NCBI GenBank assembly: GCA_045579345.1
Contig: JAZNMA010000098.1
Coordinates: 19,943 to 83,942 of the forward strand
DNA length: 64,000 bases
Direction of reading: 5' to 3'
Origin: Christensenellaceae bacterium
GTDB taxonomy: Bacteria; Bacillota; Clostridia; Christensenellales; Borkfalkiaceae
The notes under the pieces are model-generated. The model ran no database searches. It was given only the letters and a program-made list of their open reading frames with translations, and was not told the origin of the DNA. Below are positions 38,427 through 52,722 of the stretch, piece after piece (position 1 is the stretch's first letter; the number at the start of each line of letters is the position of its first letter). The position numbers were made by a program, and so were the translations under genes.

Positions 38427-38460
38427 GAAAAGCCTATGGAAAATCAATCCATAGGCTTTT
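38427..38460. terminator. bidirectional intrinsic terminator between convergent operons
   Basis: AAAAGCCTATGGA / TCCATAGGCTTTT, a 13-bp perfect stem with A-run and T-run flanks. Confidence 0.85.
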
Positions 38461-38464
38461 AACT

Positions 38465-39121
38465 TTAATGTTCTCGTTTGTCTTTTTCGGCTTTTATTTC
38501 AGCCTTTTCTTTATCGGCTTGTTGTTTCTTTTCGTACCAATCTTCAACCATACGATTTTTAAGATACCATAATTGTTTGCGTAGTTGGTCGTACTTTGCT
38601 TGTTCGACCTTGCATTTATCCCATTGTTCGTCAAGTTGTCTTTGTAGTTCTTCTTCGTTAATCTTATTGCCTAAAACAGTCTTTCCGATAAGGTAATAAT
38701 CGTCCAACTTGTCGCCATATATCCAAGCGGAAGTATTGTTTTCAAACAAAACAACGGGAATATTGTCATAAAAACTTTCAACCTTACCAACCAAGCCGTC
38801 TTTACGGATAACCTTATCTCCAAGTTTAATTTCTATATCTCCGTTTAAGACTTTTGCAAGTTGATTAAAACCTTTTTCTGCTTCAGCAAAAGTTATTCCG
38901 CAAATAGGAAGAGTAGGAATATATTTATCAAATTCTTTTATTGCGTTCTCCCAAGATTTTCCTTCGTCAAGTAAAGATAATATCACAACCACCACTGTTT
39001 CAAAAGTATAATCTTTACTTTTTGCTAAATCAAGGACGGTTTCTACAATCGTGTCAATGTCAATATCTGTTCTATTGTGTATTTCAATTATCTTGCTTTC
39101 GTAGTTTTGAAACATATTCAT
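38465..39121 (-). CDS. hypothetical protein
   Basis: 218-aa ORF with a C-terminal K/E coiled coil. Confidence 0.5.
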   Translation of the reverse strand: MNMFQNYESKIIEIHNRTDIDIDTIVETVLDLAKSKDYTFETVVVVILSLLDEGKSWENAIKEFDKYIPTLPICGITFAEAEKGFNQLAKVLNGDIEIKLGDKVIRKDGLVGKVESFYDNIPVVLFENNTSAWIYGDKLDDYYLIGKTVLGNKINEEELQRQLDEQWDKCKVEQAKYDQLRKQLWYLKNRMVEDWYEKKQQADKEKAEIKAEKDKREH

Positions 39122-39122
39122 T

Positions 39123-39446
39123 TTACTTTTTCTCCCTTGCGTACACTCTTTGAATATGTGGTACGCCCATATCTAATTGCTTGTTATATTTGTTGATTTG
39201 TAGCCAAATAAATTCATATTCGGGGTATTGTTCGACCAATTCAACGTAGTTCACTTGAAAAGAATATTTATAATCGTTTGTCCAATCAAGACGAATTAAG
39301 TTCTTGCTTTGTGCAATCGGTACAAGGCTAACCTTTTTTAACGTGGGGTGTTTAGCCATATCGAAAAAGCCTTCATTAACAAGTTCTTTATCAATCGCTT
39401 GTGCGTTCTTTAATTCTAAAATTTGTTGTAATTTTTCTTTATTCAT
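39123..39446 (-). CDS. hypothetical protein
   Basis: ATG at 39446 preceded by AAGGAG. The longer ORF to 39485 would overlap the recombinase gene. Confidence 0.45.
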   Translation of the reverse strand: MNKEKLQQILELKNAQAIDKELVNEGFFDMAKHPTLKKVSLVPIAQSKNLIRLDWTNDYKYSFQVNYVELVEQYPEYEFIWLQINKYNKQLDMGVPHIQRVYAREKK

Positions 39447-39462
39447 TTTGATTTCTTTCTCC

Positions 39463-40401
39463 TTATAATGCTCCGTCAAAAGCAAGGTTAATGCTGTTTG
39501 CTGATTTTGACTTGTTTAGTATGCTAACATAAATTTTTTCAGTTGTTGAGATGCTGGCGTGTCCAAGTGCGTTTTGTATATCACGCATTTCAATTCCCAA
39601 GTTATCCCAAAGCGATGCCGATGCGTGTCTTAATGCGTGTACACCTACTTCGTGTCCGCAACAAAGACGAGTGTATCTGTTTACAAGCCCTAAAAGTCCT
39701 GCACTTGAAAACGCTTTCCAAACCTTTCCGTTGGTGCTGTGTCCGTTCTCGTCAGCATCCGTTCCAAACAAATAATCGCAAGGGCTTAAATTTGATGGTC
39801 TAACGCCACTTTCAAGATATTCCTTGACAAGTTGTCGAGCAAGGGAAGGAAAAGCCACCAAACGCCTTTTATCGCCTTTTCCGTGCTTAATTTCAATGCA
39901 GTTGTTCTCAAAGTCTAACGCCGATAAGGGAAGTGTACGTAATTCGCTATTTCTCAAACCGACTTGTACTAATAATATCACAATCGCACGATTTCGTAAA
40001 GCAGTTTTACGGTCAATTCTCGGTGGAAGTTCCGTCAATAGCGTTTTTATTTCATCAAGCGACAATAAATCATACTCAATCTGTTCGGCTCTCGGTATCT
40101 CTTCTCGTTGAATAGGGTTGTGTTCAATCAACTTCATACGGATAGCCCACTCAAAAAAGGTGTGTAATACTGTTAGATAATAGCCTATGGTGTTTGATTT
40201 GATTTCAGTCTTGTACAACTCTGTACGGAAGTTTACAACCGTTATAGGCTGAATTTCGCCGTCTTGTTCAAGACTGTTTAAATAATCGCCAAACTTTTTA
40301 AGTATCATACTGTAAGATAAAATCGTTTTGTCGCTCTTTTTGGTTGACGGTAGGGTATTGATATACTGTTCAGCGTACTTTTGATATTCAATTCTGTTCA
40401 T
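39463..40401 (-). CDS. tyrosine recombinase (XerC/XerD-like phage integrase family)
   Basis: N-terminal SAM-like domain. Catalytic residues appear in LRNSELRTL (Arg), HALRHASAS (His-x-x-Arg) and LGHASISTTEKIY (His...Tyr). Confidence 0.9.
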   Translation of the reverse strand: MNRIEYQKYAEQYINTLPSTKKSDKTILSYSMILKKFGDYLNSLEQDGEIQPITVVNFRTELYKTEIKSNTIGYYLTVLHTFFEWAIRMKLIEHNPIQREEIPRAEQIEYDLLSLDEIKTLLTELPPRIDRKTALRNRAIVILLVQVGLRNSELRTLPLSALDFENNCIEIKHGKGDKRRLVAFPSLARQLVKEYLESGVRPSNLSPCDYLFGTDADENGHSTNGKVWKAFSSAGLLGLVNRYTRLCCGHEVGVHALRHASASLWDNLGIEMRDIQNALGHASISTTEKIYVSILNKSKSANSINLAFDGAL

Positions 40402-40911
40402 TTAATTCTCCTTGTCTAATCCGTAGTGATAGTTCAATCTTTCTATCATTTCTTGCTTTAAGTCTTTTATTTCCCACTTGTTTAACTGCACGCCTTTCTC
40501 TTCGTCAGTCGTCATCTGTTCAATAAGCATTTCGGCTAATTCTTTCGCAGTAGTATCGTCGTTAATGAGTTCTGAAAAGTCGTCAAAGGTATAGGCGATT
40601 CTTCCGTTAATAAACACGTTCCACTCGTAATAGCCTGCGCTGAATTTCATTTTTCGTTTAGGGTGTATGCTTCCGGGGATTTCCATATCGGCTTGGGGAT
40701 TGATGTATCGGTCGGTTTCAATTCCAAAATATTTGCAGTAGTCGGCTATATGTATTTTTCCTTTTATTCCTAATCTGTCGCCTGTCGCTTGCTTGATTTT
40801 TTTCATAAGCAAACTTGCATTTCCTTCTGCTGATATTTCAAAAATCTCTTGTAGTTCTCTTGTGCTTATACTTTCTTTGCTAAATATTTCTTCTCTTCTT
40901 TTATAATCCAT
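40402..40911 (-). CDS. hypothetical protein adjacent to the recombinase (possible DNA-binding accessory factor)
   Basis: 169 aa. The stop abuts the recombinase start. The N-terminal STRELQEIFEIS segment is HTH-like; function not established. Confidence 0.4.
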   Translation of the reverse strand: MDYKRREEIFSKESISTRELQEIFEISAEGNASLLMKKIKQATGDRLGIKGKIHIADYCKYFGIETDRYINPQADMEIPGSIHPKRKMKFSAGYYEWNVFINGRIAYTFDDFSELINDDTTAKELAEMLIEQMTTDEEKGVQLNKWEIKDLKQEMIERLNYHYGLDKEN

Positions 40912-40914
40912 AAC

Positions 40915-42645
40915 TTATTCTCCTGTAATTTGTAGTAATTCTTTTTGTTCAACAAGGTAGGCGCTTTGATTTTCATATATCTTGTTGTAGTTTTGTTCGT
41001 TTCCTGAAAACTCTTTGACGATTGCTTGTTCTTCGTTATTCATTTCGTGGTATGCTTTCTTGCCGTAAGACGGGGGAAGCCAACCTTTACGTTGAGAAGC
41101 AAACAAATTAAACTTGTCAAGCAAATCTTGATTTCTAAACTTAATATGGCAAGTGCCTTTTTTATAGAAAGTCAAGTTAAAGTGTTCGGTGTTTATATTT
41201 TTAGCGTTTCCATTATCAAAGTTTCTTTTTATTGTTCTTTCTAATAGTTCCATATCTTCTAAACCGCTCACGCCTTTTGCAAGATAGTTAAGCGTTTTGC
41301 TCATATCGGTAAGTTTATAAATAACTTCTCGGTCTTGTAATTCGTAAGTATAGCCATCAACTGTACAATAACCGCCAAATCCTGAACCGTGAAATTTATA
41401 ATTTTTTTCTTTGTGCCACGCTCCATAAAACGGAATTATAATTTTACTGTTCAACTTATGACCTTTATTCGTTTTCCAACCGTTATAGTAATGGATATTG
41501 TCGCAACCGTCGTATTGTGCGTATTTTGTAAACTCGGCAAACAAAGCAATAATTTCTTCTTCAATACCTTTTAAGGTCGCTCGTCTGTTTTCTTCCATAA
41601 GCATTAAAATATTATGTTCGTTAAGGTCGTAGTTCTTCATTTCGTCAAGACGAGAATTAAATTCGCTCTTTAATTTACTTGTAAGCCTTGCAGAAAACTT
41701 TGGATTGTCAAACAATGCTTTCCAATAGTAATATCTGCTTGTTTGTACAAAGTGGTTAAAATCGCAAACTTCTCCAAACAATGAAAGGGCAAAAGGTGCT
41801 TTTTCGTATTTGTTAGTAATAATATCACTAAATCTTGCGTTATATTCGGAAGTAAAAGCCGTATATTCTTTGAAAAAAGCAATTCCAGAATCTATCTGTT
41901 CGTTGTATTGTTTAACGTAAGCAGTTATCCAATCTAAGCCAAGATTTATAAGTTCGTGCTGTTCAGCAGTCTGTTCAGTTTCTATATGTATTTCTTTTGC
42001 CTTGTCAAGTTCTTCAAATACCTTTGAATTAAAGACAGAAGTAGGGGCTAACACGTCAACCCAAACAACGGCGATTTCTACGCCCGATATTCTTTCGCTA
42101 TCATAAGAGCAGAAAGCCTTTTCATAAAATTTAATTACGGCGTTATACTTATCTAACTTTGCTTTTAATTCCTTGCGTTTCAAACTGTATGGATTTCTAA
42201 TCGTTTCAGCGTTCAATATGCAAAGCACTCTACCGCCTAATTTTTCTTGCATTTTAATTGCTTTAAGTAGGTGTTCTTCGCCGTTCTCAAACGGTGGATT
42301 CATATAGATAAGGTCGTACTTCGTGTAGGTATTAAAAGTTAAAAAGTCGTTATAAACAACGGGGTAGTGCTTGTCTTTTAATATTGCTTGTAAGTTGCTG
42401 TCGATTTCGATACACTCGACTTTACAACGTGGGGTAAATCTCCAACTACTGCCCCAATATTCCCTTAAATACTCGGCAATGTCGCCTTTCCCGGCAGACG
42501 GTTCTAAAACTTTAATGTCATATTTGTGTTCGTCGCGGAAGCACTCAAATTGTTTACTAAAATCCATATCAATCTGTTCTAATAAAGATTTAGGGGTGGG
42601 GTAAAACTGCTTGTCTTGTTCAGTATAGTTAATAACTTTATTCAT
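40915..42645 (-). CDS. N6-adenine DNA methyltransferase (gamma class) with large C-terminal domain
   Basis: QFYPTP, VLEPSAGKGDI (motif I) and DLIYMNPPF (motif IV). The roughly 350-aa C-terminal extension resembles the DUF4942-type orphan methylases of phages and plasmids. A TTG at 42660 is an alternative start. Confidence 0.85.
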   Translation of the reverse strand: MNKVINYTEQDKQFYPTPKSLLEQIDMDFSKQFECFRDEHKYDIKVLEPSAGKGDIAEYLREYWGSSWRFTPRCKVECIEIDSNLQAILKDKHYPVVYNDFLTFNTYTKYDLIYMNPPFENGEEHLLKAIKMQEKLGGRVLCILNAETIRNPYSLKRKELKAKLDKYNAVIKFYEKAFCSYDSERISGVEIAVVWVDVLAPTSVFNSKVFEELDKAKEIHIETEQTAEQHELINLGLDWITAYVKQYNEQIDSGIAFFKEYTAFTSEYNARFSDIITNKYEKAPFALSLFGEVCDFNHFVQTSRYYYWKALFDNPKFSARLTSKLKSEFNSRLDEMKNYDLNEHNILMLMEENRRATLKGIEEEIIALFAEFTKYAQYDGCDNIHYYNGWKTNKGHKLNSKIIIPFYGAWHKEKNYKFHGSGFGGYCTVDGYTYELQDREVIYKLTDMSKTLNYLAKGVSGLEDMELLERTIKRNFDNGNAKNINTEHFNLTFYKKGTCHIKFRNQDLLDKFNLFASQRKGWLPPSYGKKAYHEMNNEEQAIVKEFSGNEQNYNKIYENQSAYLVEQKELLQITGE

Positions 42646-42723
42646 AAAATATTTCTCCAAATAGTGCTTGCCTTTCGGTCAAGTCTTATCTAATCTTTTT
42701 TAATTCGTTTATGTCTGCTAGAA

Positions 42724-42915
42724 TTATTGTTTTGTATAACATAATTCAATATCGTTGACGGGGTAGTATGGCTCGGCTTTATCTTCGGTTAATCTGCCAC
42801 TTTTCAGGTTGCTACAATACATTATTTCGTCGCCTATTTTAGCGTAGATATTGCCGTGTTCATCTCTAAAATAATCATAGCCGTTAAAGGTTTCTATAAA
42901 ATATGCTTTCTTCAT
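42724..42915 (-). CDS. hypothetical small protein
   Basis: 63-aa ORF. Confidence 0.45.
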   Translation of the reverse strand: MKKAYFIETFNGYDYFRDEHGNIYAKIGDEIMYCSNLKSGRLTEDKAEPYYPVNDIELCYTKQ

Positions 42916-42924
42916 TGTTGCTCC

Positions 42925-43146
42925 TTAATAACCACCACGCAAGTTTTTAGTTTCAGGCTTTGAAAGTTCTACTGTATTGCAGTAGTTTTCAAGTTCTTGT
43001 TCGGTTTCTCCACGATTTAATCTGCCGTATAAATCGTACCAAATCGCACTCATTTCATTATTCGTTAATTCTCTTTCGGGCTGTTCTTTACTAAATCGTT
43101 TTATAATGATAGAATATAATCTATCTGCAATATTTCGTTTTAACAT
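42925..43146 (-). CDS. hypothetical small protein
   Basis: ATG at 43146. The longer ORF to 43278 overlaps the upstream gene. Confidence 0.4.
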   Translation of the reverse strand: MLKRNIADRLYSIIIKRFSKEQPERELTNNEMSAIWYDLYGRLNRGETEQELENYCNTVELSKPETKNLRGGY

Positions 43147-43150
43147 TTCT

Positions 43151-43378
43151 TTATTTTCCTTTTTCTTTATTTTCCTTTTTCTTTTTAACGACAAAATCTT
43201 TTGTGTTTCTACAAAATTCTTCTGCTTGTTCAAGGGTTGTAAATTCTTCATAACAAATATCGTTATGCCATACTGCATATTTACAATATTGATTATAGTA
43301 AATTACAAGGTTATTTATTTGTTTAAATCTTTTACCATACATTTTTAATCTTGCAAAGGGTAAAACTCTTCTTATCAT
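43151..43378 (-). CDS. hypothetical small protein
   Basis: 75-aa ORF. Confidence 0.4.
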   Translation of the reverse strand: MIRRVLPFARLKMYGKRFKQINNLVIYYNQYCKYAVWHNDICYEEFTTLEQAEEFCRNTKDFVVKKKKENKEKGK

Positions 43379-43575
43379 TTCTTAATCTCCGTTATATTTT
43401 TTAGTGTCTGTTCATAACGCCATAGGGCGTGTGGTCTAATAGGTCGTAGCATAGGGGAAGTTGAGAATACAAGCACGATACATTGACCGATTTTTGGATA
43501 GTTCTGTTCGTGGTAATATCCTATAAGTTCCCCGTTTGCTATTCTCTGTTTTATTCGGTTATGGTATGGGTACAT
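43375..43575 (-). CDS. hypothetical small protein
   Basis: 66-aa ORF; stop overlaps the next start. Confidence 0.45.
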   Translation of the reverse strand: MYPYHNRIKQRIANGELIGYYHEQNYPKIGQCIVLVFSTSPMLRPIRPHALWRYEQTLKNITEIKK

Positions 43576-44250
43576 TTACGATTCCATTACGCAAGCGATA
43601 ATATCTTGCAGTTCCTGTTCAGTCGGCGCTTTATCGCTTACAAAGGTTTCACAAGCGTACAAATCTTCGTAGTGTTCACAGCATTGATACGAATAACCGT
43701 CAACGTCGGATTTCAAAACGGGCTTTTTACAACGATTACAACGCCTATTTGTTAGTCTGTTCTTGACGTAAAGCACGGCGTTATTATAAGTGTTAAGCCA
43801 ATAACCGTAGTCCTTAAAGACTGAATCAAGGGGTATTTCTTTTATGCGTTCATAATCGTAATATTCAATAGTGTGTTCAACGCCGTCAACCTTTTTTCTT
43901 AACCCCTTATAATATTTTTTGTCAATGCTGTTAAAATACATTACTGCATTAAACAAACTTTCAAACTCAATAGTTGTAGCGTTAAACATTTCGTCAGAGT
44001 AATACACAATAAATTTTCCGTCTTCGTTCTCGTCAACTTTGGCAAATTCTACCGTCCAAAAGTCAGCAATGTAGGGCAATATCTGTTCTTGGGGCATTTC
44101 CTTTAAGCGTTCAACAACGTCGTCGTGTTCGTCCATTTCCGCCCAACTAATCGCTTGTTGTCGCCATTGTTCAATCGTATAATCACGATACATACCAAAT
44201 TCGTCGCCTTGTAAATCCTTTACAACTCTATATCTTTTAATCTGTTCCAT
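43576..44250 (-). CDS. hypothetical protein with C-terminal Cys cluster
   Basis: 224 aa; CNRCKK...CCEHYEDLYAC. AAGGAG upstream. Confidence 0.5.
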   Translation of the reverse strand: MEQIKRYRVVKDLQGDEFGMYRDYTIEQWRQQAISWAEMDEHDDVVERLKEMPQEQILPYIADFWTVEFAKVDENEDGKFIVYYSDEMFNATTIEFESLFNAVMYFNSIDKKYYKGLRKKVDGVEHTIEYYDYERIKEIPLDSVFKDYGYWLNTYNNAVLYVKNRLTNRRCNRCKKPVLKSDVDGYSYQCCEHYEDLYACETFVSDKAPTEQELQDIIACVMES

Positions 44251-44264
44251 TTTATTTTTTCTCC

Positions 44265-44366
44265 TTATGCTATTTTGCTGATGACCGCTTCCAAGTGTTC
44301 TATAAGCGGTAAATTGTCCGTGTCGTATGCTTGTAATAACTGCTGTTCTAATTCCTGTTTACTCAT
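44265..44366 (-). CDS. very small ORF (33 aa)
   Basis: AGGGAG lies 7 nt upstream of the ATG at 44366. Fills the gap in the operon. Confidence 0.35.
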   Translation of the reverse strand: MSKQELEQQLLQAYDTDNLPLIEHLEAVISKIA

Positions 44367-44379
44367 TGATTTTTCTCCC

Positions 44380-45081
44380 TTAACTTATTTTTACAAGGCT
44401 TGCGCCAAACGATAAACCTAAAACGTAGGCTTTATGATAATTCATTGCAAACGCTTTTTTTAGCCTTTCAATAGTTTTAATCTGTTCAAGGCTATATCCA
44501 TAACGATAGCGATATTCACTAACGGGGCGGATAATTCTACCCTGAAAATCCAAACAATACAAACCCTTTTCTTCTTTCTCTTTGTAGTATTCCATAAATA
44601 AATCATAGAATAGGTTGCTTATATGTTCTTTTTCTTGTTGTGCGTGTTCTAAATCTGATTTTTTATGATAGCGGTAATAATTCAGTTCAAGGTCGGGGAA
44701 AGGCTCAAATTCTCCGCTTGCTATCTGTTCAGAAGATAGGGCGTACTGTTCGCCTTTATATAACCAATGCTCTTTGCCGTTCTGCTTATCGTAATAAACG
44801 GGTAAGTCGGGGTGGCAAATAGAATAAAAACTTTCTAATCCTAAAACCTTTTTAGCCTTATTAAAAGCATAATTAAACTTGTAAAGGCTTCTGTTCGGTT
44901 GGATATTTCCGCCGTCAACGTCGCATAATAGGGCAATCATTTTAGCCTTAAAACTCGGCGCTTCCAGGTAATATTCGCCCTTATACCAAAGTTTCGGATA
45001 AACATTATTACTTGCGCATTGTAAAATAATACTGTTGTTCTGTTCGTCAATCTTGATTGACTTTACGATTTCATAACTCAT
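44380..45081 (-). CDS. hypothetical protein
   Basis: 233-aa ORF. Confidence 0.5.
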   Translation of the reverse strand: MSYEIVKSIKIDEQNNSIILQCASNNVYPKLWYKGEYYLEAPSFKAKMIALLCDVDGGNIQPNRSLYKFNYAFNKAKKVLGLESFYSICHPDLPVYYDKQNGKEHWLYKGEQYALSSEQIASGEFEPFPDLELNYYRYHKKSDLEHAQQEKEHISNLFYDLFMEYYKEKEEKGLYCLDFQGRIIRPVSEYRYRYGYSLEQIKTIERLKKAFAMNYHKAYVLGLSFGASLVKIS

Positions 45082-45245
45082 AAGTTCACCGCCTTTTCTT
45101 TCCTTAAATATTCTTTTGCCTGTTCGGGCGTTGCCATTATCAATAGGTAATAACTGCGCTGTCTATTGCTTAACGGCTGTTCTAAGGCTAATTTTGCCCT
45201 GATTTCGTGTTCAATTCCTATTCTTTCAAGTTCTTTTATACTCAT
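45078..45245 (-). CDS. hypothetical small protein (55 aa)
   Basis: ATG at 45245 with GGAG 9 nt upstream. The annotated longer ORF runs through a GC-rich structured spacer. Confidence 0.45.
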   Translation of the reverse strand: MSIKELERIGIEHEIRAKLALEQPLSNRQRSYYLLIMATPEQAKEYLRKEKAVNL

Positions 45246-45340
45246 TTTATTTTCTCCAAGCCTACCGCCCAAACGGTGCGGACTTACGGCTGTTTTTATT
45301 GTCGGGGGATATACCGCCCCCGGCGGTGTTCTTTCTGTTC

Positions 45341-46183
45341 TTAATCGACTAAATAAGTCCAAACATTTAACTTGCTCGTGCCGTATCTTTTCAAGTATGC
45401 GTTCAAGCGCATTTCAAAATTTTTTCTTTCGATTTCGTACGCTTCAATCAATTTTTGTACGTCGTCGGGGGATAACTTAATCAATTTTGATTTTGTTTCG
45501 CTGTTCAAGTTCTCATAGTCCCACCAGCCAAAATATTGTAAACTTTTAACTTTGCTATCTTCGGGGCTTCTGTAATATTTAACGCCTAAATACATGTTGT
45601 CGGGTTCTGCTTTCAGTTTTTCATATTCCCAAGAAAAATTTTTCAAGTTTTCGCTTATAAAATACTCTTGTTGCGTTTTTGCATAATGCGCCATATTGTC
45701 GGCTCTTTTTTCGTCTTCGTCGTCGCTGATTCCGTTCTGACCGTACCCAAAACAAAAACGGGTTTCAATACTTTTTTTATCAATCGCAATTAGGCTACCG
45801 TCTGCAAGTTCGACAACTCGTGATATTTCTTTGTCGAAATATTCAAGCATTTTTAAATCGCCTTTCCACGCTTCACGCCCTAAAATTTCAATATATAATT
45901 TTTTTAATCTGTTCTGCTCTTCTTTGTCGGCTTGTTCTTTTGCTTTCTGTTCGTCCGTCTTTGCCTTGATTTCTGCCTTTACGTCGTCCGCCTGTTCTTC
46001 GCTTCCGTTCAAGATTTCCGCCAACTCTTCGGGCGTTTTATATCCGTACCAAACGCCCTTTATTTTGTGCCAGCGGTAGCCGTTCGCTTTTAGTTTTTCC
46101 CTTACTGCTTCCGACGGCTTACCGTCAAATAAAATTTCCGTGCTTTTAAACTGTTCGTTGATGTTTACTTGATAATTTAACAT
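45341..46183 (-). CDS. hypothetical protein
   Basis: 280 aa. The N-terminal FDGKPSEAVREKLKANGYRWHKIKGVWYG module resembles, from memory only, a short module seen in plasmid/phage polyvalent proteins. Confidence 0.5.
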   Translation of the reverse strand: MLNYQVNINEQFKSTEILFDGKPSEAVREKLKANGYRWHKIKGVWYGYKTPEELAEILNGSEEQADDVKAEIKAKTDEQKAKEQADKEEQNRLKKLYIEILGREAWKGDLKMLEYFDKEISRVVELADGSLIAIDKKSIETRFCFGYGQNGISDDEDEKRADNMAHYAKTQQEYFISENLKNFSWEYEKLKAEPDNMYLGVKYYRSPEDSKVKSLQYFGWWDYENLNSETKSKLIKLSPDDVQKLIEAYEIERKNFEMRLNAYLKRYGTSKLNVWTYLVD

Positions 46184-46189
46184 AATTTT

Positions 46190-46561
46190 TTACGCTCCTA
46201 TATATCCGATAATTTTAACGCTATGGGGAATAGCAAAAAAGATTGATTTTAATTTTTGATTATATCTTGCCGGGTATTGCTTCCCGTCGTTACAGATTGC
46301 CAAAAGTTCGCAATCTTCGGGGTTTTGTTCTTTAATCTGTTCATAAGTCATTATCTTTTGACCGTCGGGGGCGGTGCAGTCAATCAATACGCTGACCGCT
46401 TCGCTCCAATTATTAAAATAATAAACATTAAAATTTTCTGCTAACTGTTCAAATATTACAACTTTATTTGCTCTAACGTCTTTACCTTGTGGTTTAAATC
46501 CTGCTTGTTTTAGTTTTTCGTGTGCTTCGTTCTCTCTTCTTATCTGTTCACGGTTAATCAT
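46190..46561 (-). CDS. hypothetical protein
   Basis: 123-aa ORF. Confidence 0.5.
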   Translation of the reverse strand: MINREQIRRENEAHEKLKQAGFKPQGKDVRANKVVIFEQLAENFNVYYFNNWSEAVSVLIDCTAPDGQKIMTYEQIKEQNPEDCELLAICNDGKQYPARYNQKLKSIFFAIPHSVKIIGYIGA

Positions 46562-46578
46562 TTTTTAACTCTCCTTTA

Positions 46579-47049
46579 TTAGTTCCACCCGTCGATTTTT
46601 TCAAATTCGGGTAAATTGAATAGCCTTTGCGCTAATGCATTTTTAATCTGTTCTAAAACCTGATAAATAGGGGTAAAGTGTTCCGCTATATCTTCGGCGC
46701 ATTGATAAATAAAACAGCATAAACGCTTATAAGTTTCCAGCGTGTAAATATTTTCAATTAAAACGTTGTCGGGTTTTTCTCTGTTCGGCTGTTCTTCTCT
46801 CTTATAGCGAACGCCCACCGCTTCGGCGTTGATGTCTTCTAAAATCCAAAAAATAACCTGTTCGGCGTTGTAATCTTTTACGCTGTCAACGTTCAAATAT
46901 TTTTCGGCGTACTGTTCAATAGTTTTTTTGATTTTGTCGGAATAATTGCCCCAAAATAACCGCCTAATTTTTCCGGGATGATAGGTTTCGGCGTATATTA
47001 ACGCTGTTATTTGGCTTTTGGTTTTCTTGCTACATATAAAACTTGACAT
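46579..47049 (-). CDS. hypothetical protein
   Basis: 156-aa ORF. Confidence 0.5.
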   Translation of the reverse strand: MSSFICSKKTKSQITALIYAETYHPGKIRRLFWGNYSDKIKKTIEQYAEKYLNVDSVKDYNAEQVIFWILEDINAEAVGVRYKREEQPNREKPDNVLIENIYTLETYKRLCCFIYQCAEDIAEHFTPIYQVLEQIKNALAQRLFNLPEFEKIDGWN

Positions 47050-47157
47050 ATTTTTAAATCTCCCTGCGTGCGTGTTCTGTTCACGGCTTACCGCTTAATT
47101 TTTTAATTTTTAGCCCGATGTTGTCAAACCGTCGGGCTGTCGGCTGTTCGTTCTGTT

Positions 47158-47364
47158 CTAATTGTTTATGAATAATATTTCGCCCGTGTCGTTGTCGTAA
47201 ATATCAACAACGGCGGAATCCGTTTTTAAATCGTCTAACATATAAGCGGAATAACTACCCGATGAGCCGTTTTTAAATCTTGCCGTTATCGTTGCGCCCG
47301 TTGTCCGTTCCGTTACTGATTTTATAAATAAATCTAAAACGTTATTTTTTATCATATCCGCCAC
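47158..47364 (-). CDS. hypothetical small protein
   Basis: 68-aa ORF. Confidence 0.45.
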   Translation of the reverse strand: MADMIKNNVLDLFIKSVTERTTGATITARFKNGSSGSYSAYMLDDLKTDSAVVDIYDNDTGEILFINN

Positions 47365-47367
47365 CCC

Positions 47368-47727
47368 TTAACAATAAACACAATCACCAGACGACCAACA
47401 AAAAACGCTTATTTGCTTGCGTGCCTTGCCAACTCTTAACGCCTTTTTTAAACTCTTGATGCGTTCGCTTATGTCGATATAAACAAGCCCAGAATCTACC
47501 CACACGCCACAATATAAGCCGTTTTCGTGGCTGATTCTGTTCAATACCTTTTCAACCGCTTTTTTAACTTCGTTTAACTTTTCAGCGTTTAGGGTGTAGC
47601 AATCTTTTTTGCTTACCTGATAGCCCTTTTTAAAGTTTACGCTTGCGCCGTTCTTGTCTAACGTTGCGCCACCGTTCGCGATGATACTTAAAATATCAAT
47701 TTGTTTTTTGCCGTTCGTTCTGTTCAT
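47368..47727 (-). CDS. hypothetical protein
   Basis: 119-aa ORF with GGAG upstream. Confidence 0.5.
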   Translation of the reverse strand: MNRTNGKKQIDILSIIANGGATLDKNGASVNFKKGYQVSKKDCYTLNAEKLNEVKKAVEKVLNRISHENGLYCGVWVDSGLVYIDISERIKSLKKALRVGKARKQISVFCWSSGDCVYC

Positions 47728-47918
47728 AGTTTTTTAATCTCCTATAAAAATTTTTTATTTTTTCGTTTTTCCGCTTGACTTTTTCCCGTTATTCAATTAA
47801 AATAATAAAAGAATAACGCAACAAGGACGGCGCGGAGTTTTCCGCCCTTGCTTTGGTTTTGCGTGTTTGTGTTTTGTTAATCGGTTTTAGTTTCTCAGGC
47901 TCAACCGATTAACTTTTT

Positions 47919-48059
47919 TTATTTGCTTATATATTCAAGCAATTTGACCACTTGCGAATCGGTAAACTGTTCTACAGTCTTTAAGTAGTCAATCAACTTG
48001 TTAAGCGTTGTATCGCTCATCAAGGTTGTTTCCTCCGTATTTTCTAATTCGTCCGCCAT
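47919..48059 (-). CDS. small acidic ORF (46 aa), first gene of the leftward block
   Basis: AAAGGAGG lies 8 nt upstream of the ATG at 48059; about 35 nt downstream of the leftward promoter. Confidence 0.45.
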   Translation of the reverse strand: MADELENTEETTLMSDTTLNKLIDYLKTVEQFTDSQVVKLLEYISK

Positions 48060-48096
48060 TTTTAAAGCCTCCTTTGTTGCTCTTTTTCATACTCTT

Positions 48097-48125
48097 ATTA
48101 TACCAAAAAAAACAAAAAAACACAA
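48097..48125 (-). promoter_or_regulatory. leftward promoter for the 38.5-48.1 kb block
   Basis: On the minus strand: TTGTGT, 17 nt, TGgTATAAT (extended -10). Confidence 0.5.
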
Positions 48126-48198
48126 GCAAATAACACTATTATTTTAAAAATTAATGCTTAAAATCGCAAGTATTTTACTAATGATTTTATACTTTTAA

Positions 48199-48231
48199 CC
48201 GTTGATAAATTGCAACGGCTTTTTTATATTC
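48199..48231 (+). terminator. plus-strand intrinsic terminator-like hairpin with no obvious upstream gene
   Basis: CCGTTG ataaattg CAACGG followed by CTTTTTTAT. Confidence 0.4.
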
Positions 48232-48971
48232 TGGCGGATAAAATAAGACCATCACGACAAGCAATAAAAGGCGACGACCTGGCGACCACGAAAAGCACAA
48301 CGACCGCCACAGATACCGAAAACGCCCCGACAGAGTACACGCCCAAAAAAACACTACCACAACGCAACAAGCACCCCGAACACGTCCGCCCTTTTCTTTT
48401 CCTTTTTTCTTTTATATATTTTCTTTTTTGCTTTTCTTTTAAAATTTTATTTTAGTACATTATTTTTAATTTAGTAATTTAAAAAAGTTTATAACTTTTA
48501 TTTTAGTTAGTTACTTTTAATTAAATATATAAAATTATTTTTATTTTAGTTATAAAGCACTTTTTAGCGTCGCAGTGTTCAAAAGCCTATAAGAGCCTAA
48601 AAACGCCATTAAAATCAGATAAGACAGCCGCACCTGGTAAAGGGTTAAAGCGTGTTTATTTTGGTTTAACTGTTTTAATAATTGTTAGTTATTGCAACAG
48701 TTAGAGCGTGGCGGGGTATTTTTTAACGCAAAAGGTAAGGAACGAAAGCCAGCGCGGGTATAGCAGTTCTTCACATACTCTCGTTCATAAAACAATCATA
48801 ACAATTAACTTTGTCTAATATTGTCTAATATTTTGTCCAAGTAATATAGATTTAATGTTTAATGGATAAAAAGTAATAAATGATAGGAAAGATTGTAAGT
48901 ATAGTGATAATATTTGTTAGCAAAGATGTCAATTTGATAGATTGTAGTGATAATTATGGTTTACGCTTTGG

Positions 48972-49000
48972 TTGACAATGTAGTTGACTTGTGATATACT
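48972..49000 (+). promoter_or_regulatory. rightward promoter P1
   Basis: TTGACA (48972-48977), 17-nt spacer, TGaTATACT (48992-49000). Confidence 0.55.
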
Positions 49001-49006
49001 TGAGTT

Positions 49007-49083
49007 ATAGAGTAAAAAGATAGATGGGTGTTTTTTTAAGGGAATGGCGTACTGCGTTGTTCCTTATTTTTTTGGTTGACGAT
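49007..49083 (+). ncRNA. candidate small RNA of about 75 nt (P1 to terminator)
   Basis: Promoter P1 is followed within about 40 nt by the hairpin AGGGAA ... TTCCTT and ATTTTTTT (49039-49083). No ORF or RBS in between. Confidence 0.35.
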
Positions 49084-49315
49084 AAAGGAGAAGAGAACAA
49101 AAGGTGACGACGACTTGGGGGATAGTTGATAGATATATAAGATTTACTTGACTTATAGTTGACTGTAGGTAGCATTTTGTATTATATGCAAGGTGCTTTT
49201 TCTATTTTAGGGGGTGGGGTAGTTTTTTAACCAAAAATTTTTTCGCTACGCGAAATAGATATTAGAGTATTATTTTGCGGGGGGCAAATCGGCGATATAG
49301 CGTTGACAAAAAATA

Positions 49316-49343
49316 TTGTAATTAAAACTTTACGTGGTATAAT
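49316..49343 (+). promoter_or_regulatory. promoter of the tRNA/tmRNA operon
   Basis: TTGTAA, 16 nt, TGgTATAAT (extended -10 at 49335-49343). Confidence 0.55.
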
Positions 49344-49494
49344 GTTAATATAAAAATCAAATTATAGGTTTTTTGCATATTAACCTACTCCAGTTTGATT
49401 TCGCAAAACCGTAAATTGTGATAACGGACCATACACAATTAGTTTGTCGGCTAAAGACAATATGGGCGATCTCGTTGTGTGCATCGCCTAATAT

Positions 49495-49579
49495 GACCGA
49501 TTAGTTTAGTGGTAGAACGCTTGTGTAGACATAAGGTGCTAGCAAGATTACAGGAGTTCGATTCTCCTATTGGTCGCCA
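49495..49579 (+). tRNA. tRNA-like gene with aberrant anticodon region (isotype undetermined)
   Basis: Acceptor GACCGAT/ATTGGTC, D arm GTTT-AGTGGTA-GAAC, T arm AGGAG-TTCGATT-CTCCT, and G-CCA end. There are 32 nt instead of about 22 between the D and T arms. Confidence 0.5.
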
Positions 49580-49586
49580 TATATCT

Positions 49587-49943
49587 GGGCTAGTAAAGGT
49601 TTCGATTAGTCAAAGATGGTTACAATTCCACAGGAGTGCTTACCGACCTAACGGTAGGAATTAAATTAAATGCAAAATTATTTGCAAGACCATCCGTTAA
49701 AGTTGCTGCGTAAATAGTAGTAATAGGATTCCAAAATAGGGAGTTTCTCGACAACCCTTGCGGATTAAAAAGAGAATAAGGTCAGACTATCTGTGGTGAC
49801 CTGACAATAACAACACGGAGAAAAGCGCTGACTGCTTTAAGGTCAGTGGTGGAGGATGAATCTAATTCGTTCCTAAAATTGTGGTATAGCGGTTGTAAAA
49901 GTATTTGATTAAGACAAGAGTTCAATTCTCTTCTGGTCCACCA
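49587..49943 (+). ncRNA. ssrA: tmRNA (transfer-messenger RNA)
   Basis: 357 nt. The 5' GGGCTAG pairs with the 3' CTGGTCC-A-CCA, including a G3:U70 wobble (the alanine identity element). GGTTTCGAT is a D-loop analogue (compare GGAUUCGAC). The 3' end is GAC-AAGAG-TTCAATT-CTCTT. An internal tag frame GCA..TAA at 49672-49713 encodes AKLFARPSVKVAA. Confidence 0.8.
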
Positions 49944-50165
49944 TACGACTTGATATGTCGGAAGGTTGTTAGTTTTCCTAAGCCGATTAAAATAAAACTA
50001 ACCGCTTTATGTGTTTCAAATCCTATACAGTGGTGAGTATAGGTTGTGAAAGAAATACGTCCCTGATGGCATAATCTCTTTGACTTACGGGGTTAGGGGT
50101 TTTATCAACCAAAGAATAAGAGAAGGGCGTTTTGCCCGGCAACACGGAAGGAACGCCGTGTGGTT

Positions 50166-50241
50166 GCAGAAATAGCACAATAGGTAGTGCAGTTGATTTG
50201 TAATCAACAGGTTGTCAGTTCGATTCTGTCTTTCTGCTCCA
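50166..50241 (+). tRNA. tRNA-Thr (anticodon TGT)
   Basis: 76-nt cloverleaf: GCAGAAA/TTTCTGC acceptor, anticodon arm GTTGA-TTTGTAA-TCAAC, TTCGATT T-loop, encoded CCA. Confidence 0.85.
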
Positions 50242-50387
50242 AAACCGTTTGTTTGTCTTTTCATTTTTTTGGGTAGAGAAAAGACTATTCCACGTCTGAA
50301 TGACGGTGGCGACGAATATTCTTCTTGCCGAGAATATTTCGTTGTGGATTTCCGCCGGGTAGGGGCAAGGGAACGCTCGGCATTTTT

Positions 50388-50463
50388 AGGGGAGTAGCCA
50401 AGTGGTTAAGGCAACGGACTTTGATTCCGTCATTCGTAGGTTCAAATCCTTCTTCCCCTGCCA
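50388..50463 (+). tRNA. tRNA-Gln (anticodon TTG)
   Basis: 76 nt: AGGGGAG/TTCCCCT acceptor, anticodon arm ACGGA-CTTTGAT-TCCGT, TTCAAAT T-loop, encoded CCA. Confidence 0.8.
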
Positions 50464-50468
50464 AATAT

Positions 50469-50544
50469 AGCAGATTAGAGAAGCGGCTATCTCGCTTGGC
50501 TCATAACCAAGAAATCGCAGGTTCGAGTCCTGCATCTGCAACCA
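50469..50544 (+). tRNA. tRNA with CAT anticodon (Met; fMet or Ile-lysidine not excluded)
   Basis: 76 nt: anticodon arm CTTGG-CTCATAA-CCAAG, T arm GCAGG-TTCGAGT-CCTGC, A1:A72 mismatch at the top of the acceptor stem, encoded CCA. Confidence 0.8.
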
Positions 50545-50569
50545 AAAATAATTTAATGGGGGATTTACC

Positions 50570-50893
50570 ATGAATGGTTTTTTAACCGCTATTACATCTT
50601 TTGCTCGTTGGTGTACGGATAAAATACTTATTCCTGTGTTTGGAAAAGAGTATTGGGGGCAATACTATGGGATTTTTTTGTTTGTTCTTTTTGTTCTTTT
50701 AGTTGCCGCCATCGTTGTTTTGAGTATAATATTGAAAAAAACAATTATTAGGTATAAATCTAAAGTTTCATTTTTAAGAAAAGAATTAAACGATGCGTCT
50801 AATGAATGTCAAAAAAAGAATGATATGATTATTGAATTAAAGAAAAAACTTTTAGTCAAAGAAGCAAAAAGTGAAAAAAGAAAAAAGAGATAA
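50570..50893 (+). CDS. small membrane protein with C-terminal coiled coil
   Basis: 107 aa. One strong TM helix (GIFLFVLFVLLVAAIVVLSIIL), GGGGA upstream. Confidence 0.5.
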   Translation: MNGFLTAITSFARWCTDKILIPVFGKEYWGQYYGIFLFVLFVLLVAAIVVLSIILKKTIIRYKSKVSFLRKELNDASNECQKKNDMIIELKKKLLVKEAKSEKRKKR

Positions 50894-50898
50894 ATTAA

Positions 50899-51168
50899 GT
50901 GAAAGCAAGCAAAAGTTTTTTAAGAAAATATTCTAAACGAATTAACATAAATTGCTGTAGGCATAAAGGCAGTCCTATAATCAAATATCAAATAGGGTAC
51001 ATAGGATTAAGATGCTGTAAAGTAGCAATTTGCCTTGATTGTGAACAAAGGCAAGTAATTTGTCGTGGTTTTGCAAAATGGTTATTAGTACATTTTGTAC
51101 AAACAAAAACAAGGCGAATTAACATTCTTTGCGTTGTGACAAATCAAGAGATGTTTCTATATAGGTGA
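50899..51168 (+). CDS. doubtful ORF (GTG start, Cys/Arg-rich); may instead be the regulatory region of the XRE gene
   Basis: No convincing RBS. The region contains palindromes (TTGCCTTG..CAAAGGCAA, TTTGTACAAA). Confidence 0.2.
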   Translation: MKASKSFLRKYSKRININCCRHKGSPIIKYQIGYIGLRCCKVAICLDCEQRQVICRGFAKWLLVHFVQTKTRRINILCVVTNQEMFLYR

Positions 51169-51171
51169 AAA

Positions 51172-51537
51172 ATGCAAGAAAATAGTATAAATAAAAATCA
51201 AAATTCTGAAACAACGTGTTTTAATGAGATTTTTTCAAAACGTCTTCGTCGTTTAAGATTAGATAAAGACCTTAAATGTGTTGAAGTTGCACTAGGAACA
51301 AGTTTGAGCCATACGGCAATACTTGGATATGAAGATGGTAGTCAATTACCTAAAATGGATTCACTAATAAAATTAGCGGATTTTTTCGATGTGTCTATTG
51401 ATTATTTAACTGGTAGGACCGATTTAAGGCGACTGCCTAAAGAAATAGATATTTTAATGCTTGAAAGCAAATTGTTAGAACTTGGTTCTTACGCTGAACA
51501 GTTTAAGCAAGACCTTTCAAGACGAGAAGAAATATAA
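51172..51537 (+). CDS. XRE-family helix-turn-helix transcriptional regulator
   Basis: FSKRLRRLRLDKDLKCVEVALGTSLSHTAILGYEDGSQLPKMDSLIKLADFFDVSIDYLTGR is a typical HTH_3 domain. Confidence 0.85.
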   Translation: MQENSINKNQNSETTCFNEIFSKRLRRLRLDKDLKCVEVALGTSLSHTAILGYEDGSQLPKMDSLIKLADFFDVSIDYLTGRTDLRRLPKEIDILMLESKLLELGSYAEQFKQDLSRREEI

Positions 51538-51662
51538 TTAATTGTGTCCAAAACTTTCTCCTATATAATAAAGTTTTTTAAACAAAAACGGCTTTCAAAA
51601 TGAAGGTCGTTTTTGTTTGACTTTTAAAGTAAAAAGTCTTAAAATTTAATTGTAAGAATTTT

Positions 51663-51704
51663 TAGTAACAATTTTTAGTAACAAAATACACAAATTAGTA
51701 ACAA
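51663..51704 (+). repeat. three direct repeats of TAGTAACAA (51663, 51676, 51696)
   Basis: Read directly. Located between the XRE gene and tRNA-Trp. Candidate recombinase arm-type or operator sites. Confidence 0.6.
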
Positions 51705-51778
51705 AACCCACTAAACAAAATAAAGAAAAACGCCATTTTTCAACTAAAAATAGCCAAAAAACAGCGTTTTTTTGATGT

Positions 51779-51854
51779 TGGCAGGGGAGACGCGACTCGA
51801 ACACGCAACCGGCGGTTTTGGAGACCGCTGCTCTACCAATTGAGCCACTCCCCT
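51779..51854 (-). tRNA. tRNA-Trp (anticodon CCA)
   Basis: The reverse complement gives AGGGGAG..CTCCCCT acceptor, GCGGT-CTCCAAA-ACCGC anticodon arm, GTTCGAGTC T-loop and encoded CCA. Confidence 0.9.
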
Positions 51855-51912
51855 AAAAACGTATAGATTATACAATAAATTTTAACTTTAGTCAATCAAA
51901 AAGAGGTGAAAA

Positions 51913-52722
51913 ATGAAAAAGAAATTTAAATTAGGTGTAATTGGTGCAGGGTTTATGGCAACAGCTATAATTAAAGGGGCTATTGCAGGAAAAGTTATAA
52001 ACGCCTCAGAAATTATTGTTAGTGACGTAAATCAAATATCGCTAGATAAAATATCTAAAATAGGCGTTGAGGTCACCATGAATAACGTTGAACTTGTTGA
52101 CCAAGCCGAATATGTTTTATTTGCAGTAAAACCACAAAATTTAAATGAATTATTAATTGATATAAAAAGTTGTTTATCTAATTTAAAATTTATTTCGATA
52201 ATGGCTGGTGTTAAAAAAGAAAAATTTAAGAAAGTATTTCCAAACTCTAAGATAGCGAGATGCATGCCTAATACGCCTTGCAGTATTGGTGCTGGAGCTG
52301 TGGGATTAGACGCTTCTGACTTTACCGATAAAAACGACGTAGATTTTATTAACGCTTTATTATCTTCGTTTGGTACAGTTGTAGAGGTTGAAGAGGATAA
52401 ACTCGGTGCGGTTACAGGAGTTAGTGGCAGTTCTCCAGCATATTTTTATTTATTTCTTAAAGGTGTTATTGATGCTGGGGTAAGCCAAGGGCTTTCTTAC
52501 GAACAAGCAAGACTGCTCGCAACTAGTACAATGATTGGTGCCGGGAAAATGGTTGAAAAAAATCCTGAAAAATCACTAGATGAATTAATAAATGCTGTTT
52601 GTAGTAAAGGCGGAACAACAATTGAAGCAATTAAAGTTTATCAAAATAACGATATTAATAAAATAACAAAAGAGGCTCTTGACGCATGTGTAAAAAGGTC
52701 GCAGGAGTTGGAAAATTTATGA
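51913..52722 (+). CDS. proC: pyrroline-5-carboxylate reductase
   Basis: LGVIGAGFMATAIIKG Rossmann start, CMPNTPCSIGAGA, SGSSPAYFYLF motifs. Confidence 0.9.
   Translation: MKKKFKLGVIGAGFMATAIIKGAIAGKVINASEIIVSDVNQISLDKISKIGVEVTMNNVELVDQAEYVLFAVKPQNLNELLIDIKSCLSNLKFISIMAGVKKEKFKKVFPNSKIARCMPNTPCSIGAGAVGLDASDFTDKNDVDFINALLSSFGTVVEVEEDKLGAVTGVSGSSPAYFYLFLKGVIDAGVSQGLSYEQARLLATSTMIGAGKMVEKNPEKSLDELINAVCSKGGTTIEAIKVYQNNDINKITKEALDACVKRSQELENL

Follow-up and report, generated by a model that had tools for sequence, protein, structure and literature searches.

Why should one hexamer recur dozens of times, always in the same orientation, within a single block of leftward phage genes? The question was raised by a 64,000-nt stretch of a Christensenellaceae bacterium genome (contig JAZNMA010000098.1, positions 19,943 to 83,942; hereafter the window), where a first, sequence-only reading had noted a dense array of GAACAG on the coding strand of a leftward operon. 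The window is a siphovirus-type prophage adjoining the chromosome of a spore-forming Clostridia, and the array-bearing block is the right-hand 9.7 kb of the prophage (Table 1). We found that the repeated hexamer is a strongly selected signal at the level of nucleic acid, with the consensus GAACRG.

All 45 CTGTTC positions listed for the + strand between 39067 and 47972 (GAACAG on the strand of the leftward genes) were confirmed by exact count, as was the complete absence of GAACAG from the + strand of that interval. The rest of the window contained CTGTTC once, at 58455 in host DNA, a copy that the listing had missed, and GAACAG 11 times, among them the seven copies listed for the first 38.4 kb. 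On the coding strand of the block, GAACAG was the top hexamer (44 copies; AAAAAA, 36), and its 5-mer core GAACA was present 73 times compared to zero for TGTTC. Depletion of TGTTC as a host-wide feature was rejected, TGTTC being no outlier among 5-mers. The longer strings GAACAGATT and GAACAGATTAAA occurred seven and five times, as claimed. The hexamer itself needed redefinition. GAACGG was found 11 times in the block, compared to approximately 1.5 copies expected from the rest of the window (eight in the other 52 kb). Thus, the enrichment attributed to GAACAG stood but the identity of the motif did not: the true motif is GAAC(A/G)G, or GAACRG, with 56 copies on the - (sense) strand of the block (45 GAACAG and 11 GAACGG) and no reversed copies. 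Two of the GAACGG copies lie in the catalytic domain of the recombinase, which had been described as free of the motif.

The copies were not confined to one reading frame. GAACAG was read as GAA-CAG in 29–30 cases, as xxG-AAC-AGx in 9–10 and as xGA-ACA-Gxx in two, close to the 31, nine and one reported previously; further copies were intergenic, and a single 108-nt intergenic gap (47050–47157) held three GAACRG copies. We compared the 39 GAACAG copies in coding sequences with 2000 shuffles of synonymous codons within each gene, which preserved protein sequence and codon usage. The shuffles yielded 18.5 ± 2.8 copies with a maximum of 28, below the 30 that the sequence-only reading had set as the level at which its claim should fall; shuffling codon order yielded 4.9 ± 2.1. 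The most frequent dipeptide of the block was Glu-Gln (42), spelled GAACAG in 29 of the 42 cases, and elsewhere in the window Glu-Gln was spelled GAACAA or GAGCAA. The in-frame GAA-CAG copies likewise supplied approximately 29 of the 42 CAG codons of the block, indicating that the motif shapes both codon choice and protein composition.

The single orientation, correct as a count, was not significant by itself, since 69–79% of the shuffles also contained no reversed hexamer. The reversed core GTTC, on the other hand, was depleted approximately five-fold on the sense strand of the block (2 vs 10.9 ± 2.8). Predicted RNA unpairedness was slightly higher for the copies than for composition-matched hexamers (0.60 vs 0.52, P = 0.004), with no defined hairpin context. 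Regular spacing or helical phasing was rejected, as spacings were near exponential (coefficient of variation 1.04). Pairing with an RNA guide, in which a guide U could explain the R, was rejected as well because the wobble variants GGACAG, GAGCAG, and GAATAG were not enriched.

We collected relatives of the block (designated by L numbers) via its methyltransferase, its recombinase and the family of the 119-aa first-gene protein. Megablast of the block against the GenBank phage collection gave no match, and no close relative of the methyltransferase was found in IMG/VR. Every locus found with a homologous operon was enriched in GAACRG on the operon sense strand. These loci represented seven lineages: the window with L002 (55 copies in 9.5 kb) and L003 (31 in 5.6 kb); L004/L005 (58 in L004, where GAACGG outnumbers GAACAG); L006/L009/L010 (50–63, GC content 43%); L016/L017 (36–40); L022/L023 (7–8, within the recombinase gene alone); L025–L027 (39 in 6.3 kb); and L028 (22–24, none reversed, GC content 32%, mostly TGAACAG). 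Between lineages, protein identity varied from 46% to 90% and GC content from 32% to 43%, and gene content was mosaic and largely different; the six blocks first compared had nothing in common beyond the recombinase, the methyltransferase and a protein that opens with a 50-aa domain. We sought a lineage with a different motif and found none: all seven use GAACRG and differ only in flank preferences (A after the motif in the window, C after it in L016, T before it in L028), leaving 6 bp conserved. In four lineages, GAAC was followed by AG or GG in 44–60% of cases, compared to 8% elsewhere.

Individual copies turned over. In the recombinase and methyltransferase orthologues they were mostly located at different codons. 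A comparison of the window with L002, at 90% nucleotide identity, showed 16 of 22 copies kept, six lost and six gained. Because density is kept while copies turn over, selection acts on density rather than position, and turnover of this kind is the signature of density selection, as for Chi or uptake sequences. The conservation in homologous blocks that had been proposed as a check was therefore found for density and not for individual positions. Three methyltransferase homologues (L001, L015, and L018) lie in a conjugative-element-like context that is not enriched in GAACRG, with ArdA, DpnD-PcfM, PcfJ, PcfK, YodL, SSB, and DNA ligase as neighbours, as in the leading regions of Gram-positive conjugative elements. 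This suggests that the anti-restriction-type methyltransferase gene moves between conjugative elements and the phage operon.

The position of the array was tied to the promoter. Density in the window was 9–10 GAACRG per kb in the first 4 kb past the promoter and approximately 3 per kb thereafter; across six lineages, it was 6–12 per kb over the first 3–5 kb, with decay afterwards in all six. In these six lineages, the first copy sits within the first open reading frame (ORF) after the promoter. The pooled upstream non-coding DNA (5.1 kb) contained two sense copies and one antisense copy where array density predicts approximately 30, and both sense copies fall in a tandem repeat of L028. That repeat (L028, 1–290) consists of approximately 2.3 copies of a 122-bp unit directly upstream of the operon promoter, at the end of a 100-kb contig, with one GAACGG per full copy.

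Across the whole prophage, GAACRG was found on sense strands only (14:0 in the rightward region and 56:0 in the block, 70:0 in all), and polarity converges at 38.4 kb, with 14:0 on the + strand to the left and 0:56 to the right. The rightward phage genes (34 kb of coding sequence) contained 13 copies vs 15.0 ± 3.5 expected, indicating neither enrichment nor avoidance. Two relatives were informative about polarity. In L004 it flips at a divergent promoter, and the motif there follows the sense strand of the divergent genes, one of which encodes an RHH-type regulator (6 vs 1.8 expected, P = 0.002). In L016 the array extends beyond the recombinase stop codon and a hairpin, with four copies antisense inside a real convergent gene of 291 aa (4 vs 0.44 expected, P = 0.0002). 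Since these copies run antisense, polarity is set by the region, or by read-through transcription, and does not follow the sense of the individual gene. The contention that GAACAG is a nucleic-acid signal and not a protein motif was thereby upheld on several grounds: three frames, intergenic copies, the antisense copies of L016, an excess over synonymous shuffles and density kept between lineages. Enrichment, frame independence, conservation with turnover, and onset at the promoter are established.

We consider the array to be most readily explained as a transcription-linked signal on the sense strand, selected for density and marking the immediate-early leftward operon, and give this a probability of roughly 40%; our confidence in any particular reader of the signal is much lower. 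A link to transcription is the simplest account because it covers the onset at the promoter, the flip at a divergent promoter, the frame independence, the intergenic copies, the 70:0 sense bias, and the depletion of the complementary core. From these we infer that transcription, and not replication or a DNA end, lies behind the polarity, and all that concerns the reader is inferred too. The operon would start at the promoter beside the prophage end and would consist of small, fast-changing accessory genes of anti-defence type, the methyltransferase and an accessory Xer-type recombinase. A leftward RNA polymerase would expose the hexamer every 100–160 nt, in nascent RNA and equally on the non-template strand. 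A conserved sequence-specific reader would then recognise it and handle this class of transcripts differently from other phage transcripts. Such a conserved reader is suggested by the invariance of the motif across hosts of differing GC content, and would come either from the core machinery of the host or from a phage gene lying outside the block.

The sub-mechanism that we favour is a class-specific RNA tag, through which an RNA-binding protein or endoribonuclease would set the lifetime or translation of early transcripts, comparable to T4 RegB acting at GGAG. Alternatively, a NusG-type elongation factor might be engaged repeatedly on the non-template strand. We prefer the RNA tag because dependence on copy number would fit decay, coating, or titration better than an antiterminator that loads once. 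In lying on the sense strand of a single class of mRNA, in any frame, the motif behaves as targets of the RegB/MazF type do. The RegB-like target array suggested at the outset is a candidate role compatible with all of the data. Family searches of the block proteins recognised no RNase family.

Several considerations weigh against a transcription-linked tag. To our knowledge, no RNA-binding protein or RNase has GAACRG specificity, and the literature yielded none; we found no description of a GAACRG array there, a full-text search for GAACAG with methyltransferase and motif giving unrelated papers only. The antisense copies of L016 require read-through, whereas polarity at the level of DNA explains them directly, and the direction of transcription is confounded with a polarity diverging from the junction, such as that of a replication origin or DNA end. 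An RNase active late should select for avoidance of the motif in late genes, yet these show none (the 13 vs 15.0 ± 3.5 copies given above). The RNA accessibility signal is weak and shared by other A-rich hexamers. Finally, known antitermination normally needs one site, which leaves 56 copies unexplained under that sub-variant. A bolder version of the idea, which we regard as possible but doubtful, is that an undescribed operon-wide tag, read co-transcriptionally by a conserved factor of newly seen specificity, marks an immediate-early operon of anti-defence type in a family of temperate phages of Clostridia. Candidate readers are a new endoribonuclease, an RNA-coating protein acting in anti-termination or anti-decay, and a NusG-like factor. 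If this were true, the tag would have to arise in every gene that enters the operon.

The L016 copies, which run regardless of gene orientation, agree with polarity read in DNA and so would suit a Chi-like array, in which host AddAB meets GAACRG or CYGTTC from one direction, stops degrading phage DNA and loads RecA. Terminally clustered Chi in lambdoid phages that lack their own recombination genes offers a precedent. Apart from the Xer-type gene, family searches recognised no recombinase, exonuclease, or Gam-like gene in the block, and no recombination module of the phage's own was recognised in the 49 kb of prophage in the window, the left prophage end lying outside it. The gradient of density away from the junction, the turnover of sites and the use of the same motif by phages of different hosts also agree with Chi. 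The S. aureus Chi, GAAGCGG, is similar to GAACGG. There is a resemblance to the Firmicute Chi AGCGG of B. subtilis as well (PMC3321194), and the closest published parallel is provided by phages LLS, MD8, and P1, where Chi is the commonest octamer, near one orientation (20:3, 32:0) and clustered to one genome end (PMC12315714).

Chi would be expected to be over-represented in the host with a leading-strand skew, and neither was seen in 13.4 kb of host DNA, a small sample that makes the test weak: GAACRG was 5:1, with four coding copies vs 2.7 in the shuffle null, and CYGTTC numbered one vs 2.0. TGGTGC, which contains the classic TGGTG core, was 10:0 on the host leading strand and is a better candidate than GAACRG for a polar motif of the host, whether Chi- or KOPS-like. 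Its extension TTGGTGC was 7:0 on the + strand of the host part (50560–64000), at 51941, 52286, 52535, 54014, 59115, 59370, and 61575; approximately 1–2 copies of TTGGTGC/TGGTGC were expected there, and the excess is borderline after multiple testing on 13.4 kb. TGGTGC was 15:3 in the rightward phage genes and was present once in the block, antisense. Other features of the phage also fit Chi poorly. The rightward 38 kb is not enriched (13 vs 15), the non-coding DNA beside the presumed entry point carries no copies in the window, and the reversed core GTTC is depleted, although Chi is normally not selected against its reversed core. With the portal and putative terminase genes approximately 28 kb from the nearer end of the block, a packaging end at the block would not be expected. 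The Chi-like role first proposed is weakened by these results, and we now consider it unlikely.

Polarity converging at 38.4 kb from both arms (14:0 vs 0:56), as KOPS converges on dif, would be explained if the motif steered FtsK or SpoIIIE to a resolution site near the Xer-type recombinase gene. That gene (312 aa, PF02899 and PF00589) is distal in the operon wherever this part was seen, and it probably encodes an accessory enzyme, L025 having a separate 381-aa integrase. Firmicute guide motifs are short and purine-rich, such as the KOPS of L. lactis (PMC3384302). The L016 copies independent of gene sense fit a DNA-level reading here too, and depletion of the reversed core is what would be expected of a polar translocase signal. 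Around dif, however, KOPS density rises, whereas GAACRG density was lowest beside the convergence point and highest far from it, and the left arm was not above chance. A conserved dif-like recombination site at the convergence point was sought and rejected, since the convergent hairpins are lineage-specific and resemble ordinary terminators. Once integrated, the array runs against the host replichore (host genes are all on the + strand) and would oppose host translocation; nor was there a GAACRG excess in the 13.4 kb of host DNA. We judge this KOPS/SRS-like guide quite unlikely. Orientation of a primase, also suggested initially, would fit poorly, as its sites would exist only in the block.

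Confinement of the array to, and its co-orientation with, one transcription unit recalls the stoperators of Cluster A mycobacteriophages, whose repressors bind approximately 25–35 asymmetric sites in a single orientation relative to transcription and stop elongation (PMC9283540, PMC6550527). A DNA-binding protein on duplex GAACRG sites might similarly block RNA polymerase depending on orientation, so that the operon and its recombinase gene stay silent in the lysogen. A small RHH-type regulator is encoded divergently from the operon in L004 and L020, and orientation relative to transcription was indeed single (56:0 in the block, 14:0 in the rightward region). Known sites, however, are 13–14 bp long, strongly conserved and mostly intergenic, whereas GAACRG is a 6-bp motif with variable flanks and mostly coding. 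We found no extended consensus of 13–14 bp, and in none of six lineages is a copy present at the promoter, where an operator would be expected. In the window an intact array accompanies a truncated RHH gene, and a 6-bp site would presumably recur thousands of times in the host genome. These features leave stoperator-like action only a slim chance.

A target of modification or restriction was another early suggestion: GAACRG would be recognised by the DUF4942 methyltransferase of the block or else by a BREX, type III or type IIL system of the host, with the array acting as a methylation switch or decoy. Asymmetric sites of 5–7 bp with R degeneracy are typical of such enzymes. The phage is evidently under restriction pressure (AGCT, CATG, CTAG, GATC, and GGCC are avoided in the block and late genes), and most array blocks contain a methyltransferase gene. 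Enzyme and array nevertheless part company in both directions: L025/L026 carry 39 copies in 6.3 kb but no methyltransferase, and L001 and L015 encode methyltransferases 67% identical to that of the window in unenriched contexts. The methyltransferase tree interleaves array and non-array contexts. Restriction targets are, moreover, normally depleted in phages and not enriched 10-fold. Evasion of type III restriction by strand bias is excluded, since the + strand reads GAACRG in 1–38 kb and CYGTTC in the block, making the two sets of sites mutually inverted. A site of the phage methyltransferase is thus disfavoured, and we hold modification or restriction in general to be very improbable.

The absence of any function, with the array a by-product of block origin, codon usage, amino-acid composition, or strand-specific mutational bias, is largely refuted and scarcely credible to us. 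Codon usage of the block does differ from the rest of the phage (more C-ending codons and CAG), and a CpG transition on the opposite strand converts GAACGG into GAACAG. Shuffles preserving codon usage, however, gave half of the observed count and reached it in 0 of 2000 trials, and the CAG excess is itself explained by the motif (approximately 29 of 42). The hexamer is kept across GC contents of 32–43% and unrelated genes, losses are balanced by gains, and methyltransferase orthologues outside the operon lack the motif. An integron-like cassette array, which would have imperfect attC-type palindromes where cassettes join and a divergent intI gene, was rejected, as the 6-mer is mostly inside genes and the recombinase is co-oriented and distal. 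The remaining probability is assigned to mechanisms not yet thought of.

The features of the window are listed in Table 1. The rightward part of the prophage includes portal, tape-measure, and tail genes; the portal gene is at 12475–14226, and an ORF just upstream (10227–12119) is a putative large-terminase gene by position and size only, with no family match. The prophage ends between approximately 48.2 and 49.5 kb. Genes right of 49.5 kb had been taken for phage genes and are host genes instead. Between 49.5 and 50.5 kb there are an odd 85-nt tRNA, tmRNA (Rfam, 59.8 bits), and tRNA-Thr/Gln/Met/Trp. The genes at 51.9–64 kb are proC, surE, a gene for an HI0933-like flavoprotein, cmk, an acyltransferase gene, an IspH-S1 fusion, and spoIIIAA-AE; these are chromosomal, and they identify the host as a spore-forming Clostridia. 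The odd tRNA (49495–49579, beside the tmRNA) has an abnormal anticodon region, and ARAGORN assigned it no anticodon.

Table 1. Features of the window, with positions counted from its first letter.
Feature	Position	Strand	Description
GAACRG array	39067–47972	-	45 GAACAG and 11 GAACGG, exact counts
GAACGG copies (starts of CCGTTC on the + strand)	39743, 39759, 42281, 44777, 45732, 46005, 46080, 47305, 47648, 47672, 47711
Bidirectional terminator hairpin	38428–38460	-	13-bp arms, 7-nt loop, flanked by A run and T run; operon end
Last two operon ORFs, 120 aa and 218 aa	38465–39485	-	Motif-poor, single copy (39067)
Xer-type tyrosine recombinase, 312 aa	39463–40401	-	Phage_int_SAM_1 (PF02899) and Phage_integrase (PF00589)
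N6-adenine methyltransferase, DUF4942 domain	40915–42660	-	Six GAACRG copies; not universal among array blocks
280-aa protein	45341–46183	-	N-terminal domain of ~50 aa, FDGKPS..R..LKA.GYRW.K.KG.WYGY
119-aa protein, unknown fold	47368–47727	-	Small family, 98 clusters; no Pfam match
First operon ORF, 46 aa	47919–48059	-	Good ribosome-binding site AAAGGAGG; first motif copy (47967)
Putative early-left promoter	48095–48169	-	TTGCGA-17-TAAAAT at 48169–48141; extended -10 TGgTATAAT near 48100; consensus matches only
Non-coding junction, promoter to host tRNA/tmRNA	48101–49494	.	No motif copy in either orientation
Host chromosome	49495–64000	+ (genes)	tRNA/tmRNA and host protein genes

The block avoids the same palindromes as the late genes, pointing to the same restriction pressure and arguing that it is part of the phage. 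In the late genes, AGCT was found six times vs 94 expected, CATG nine vs 57, CTAG seven vs 52, GATC 12 vs 52, and GGCC zero vs 21; each occurs 0–1 times in the block. Host genes, too, avoid GATC (2 vs 16). The pattern hints that the host lineage possesses several type II restriction systems. In the rightward genes (1–38069), read on their sense strand, ACAGA (18 vs 53 expected), CAGA (68 vs 143), and TCTG (30 vs 49) are depleted too, in contrast to the block, which holds 27 GAACAGA; the depletion of ACAGA and CAGA may reflect codon context or avoidance of an asymmetric restriction site. The block as a separate element was rejected, no att-like flanking direct repeats being present beyond one badly placed 13-bp match between 38711–38723, inside the last ORF of the block, and 49573 at the tRNA 3' end (GTCGCCATATATC), which we judged to be due to chance (approximately 0.05 expected).

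Operon genes are small and mostly lack a recognisable family, and comparison of the block proteins with Pfam, PHROGs, NCBIfam, and PDB sequences revealed no function besides the methyltransferase and recombinase. A 46-aa ORF occupies the equivalent first position in L025/L026, and the array operons of L004, L010/L020, and L028 open with a gene of the 119-aa family. The domain of approximately 50 aa that opens the 280-aa protein was found in all six array blocks compared (homologues in L002, L004, L006, L010, and L016), fused to differing C-terminal parts (LPD25, LPD29, and others in relatives). It has no Pfam model and matches the C-terminal end of a PHROG annotated as primase. The Xer-type recombinase is distal in every array block where that part was seen and carries 5–8 GAACRG copies per lineage. 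It is probably accessory and not the main integrase of the phage, because L025 has a separate canonical lysogeny module (1–6841), which lies 4–9 kb upstream of its array operon and comprises HTH regulators, a 381-aa Phage_int_SAM_3 integrase, a cro-like HTH protein, and the replication organiser Phage_rep_org_N.

At its far end, the operon meets the rightward tail and lysis genes at the terminator hairpin. The loop of this convergent terminator is flipped between close relatives: AACAACG in L002 (9490–9525) is the reverse complement of the loop in L003 (5577–5612, CGTTGTT), with CATTGTT in L025 (15941–15976), and the stems are identical. At the promoter end, the TGGTATAAT element of the putative promoter also lies upstream of the array in L016. 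The junction of the window contains a GT-rich remnant, on the + strand at approximately 48210–48400, of the C-terminal half of the divergent RHH regulator gene, which is intact in L004 (4689–4964) and L020, and AT-rich iteron-like repeats at 48437–48556 (TTTTATTTTAGT, four copies). In the window phage, an extra promoter and the 46-aa ORF replace the 5' half of the regulator gene, and its control region is rearranged and possibly defective.

If functional, the array would rank with the strongest examples of a short oligomer under selection within protein-coding genes. Through it, Glu-Gln has become the most frequent dipeptide across 17 unrelated proteins, and it is re-created in genes entering the operon. 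It would point to a sequence-specific reader in gut Clostridia or their phages, be it an RNase, an elongation factor, AddAB, or a translocase. GAACRG density would also provide a simple signature for immediate-early, anti-defence operons of an otherwise unannotatable phage family.

Among known systems, the Chi-rich phages LLS, MD8, and P1 with host Chi (RecBCD/AddAB) resemble the array in having a top k-mer that is near one orientation, clustered, largely coding and subject to gain and loss (PMC12315714). They differ in density, approximately 0.5–1 per kb there and 6 per kb here. GAACRG is, furthermore, confined to one operon that is genome-interior, as inferred from the portal and putative terminase, starts exactly at the promoter, avoids its reversed core and shows no excess in 13.4 kb of host DNA. 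The cluster A stoperators of the L5 gp71 type share the many asymmetric sites in one orientation within phage operons, including the leftward early arm (PMC9283540, PMC6550527). Their sites, however, are 13–14 bp long, lie mainly between genes at approximately 30 per 50-kb genome, and also serve as the operator of the early promoter, whereas the 6-bp GAACRG has 56 copies in 9.7 kb, mainly coding, and none at the promoter.

T4 RegB targets GGAG in early mRNAs, and MazF-type pentads are unusually abundant in certain mRNAs, such as S. aureus sraP. By analogy, GAACRG would likewise be a short sequence enriched in one mRNA class, read in RNA, sense-oriented and frame-independent. RegB sites cluster at Shine-Dalgarno and intergenic regions, whereas GAACRG is spread throughout coding sequence; here, family searches of the block turned up no RNase gene, and avoidance of the motif in late genes was not seen. 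KOPS/SRS with Xer/dif are polar purine-rich oligomers that switch at defined points, and here an Xer-type gene lies near the convergence (PMC3384302). The array departs from them in being densest away from the convergence, in having no conserved dif-like site and in the enrichment of one arm. NusG reads TTNTTT, the pausing signal of B. subtilis, as a hexamer of the non-template strand. This and ops/RfaH would offer, again by analogy, a precedent for a short motif read only in the direction of transcription on that strand, although the sequence is another one, ops is single per operon, TTNTTT is genome-wide, and no NusG paralogue was seen in the sequence examined. In T7, the EcoP15I sites are all on one strand, so that every copy of an asymmetric restriction-type site is on a single strand as here, but the T7 site is not enriched and its bias is genome-wide, whereas GAACRG is enriched approximately 15-fold and runs in opposite directions in the block and in the remainder of the phage. 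The array belongs to the general class of over-represented polar oligomers and differs from each known member; new to the class are its density of approximately 6 per kb, its confinement to one operon and its re-creation in a changing set of genes.

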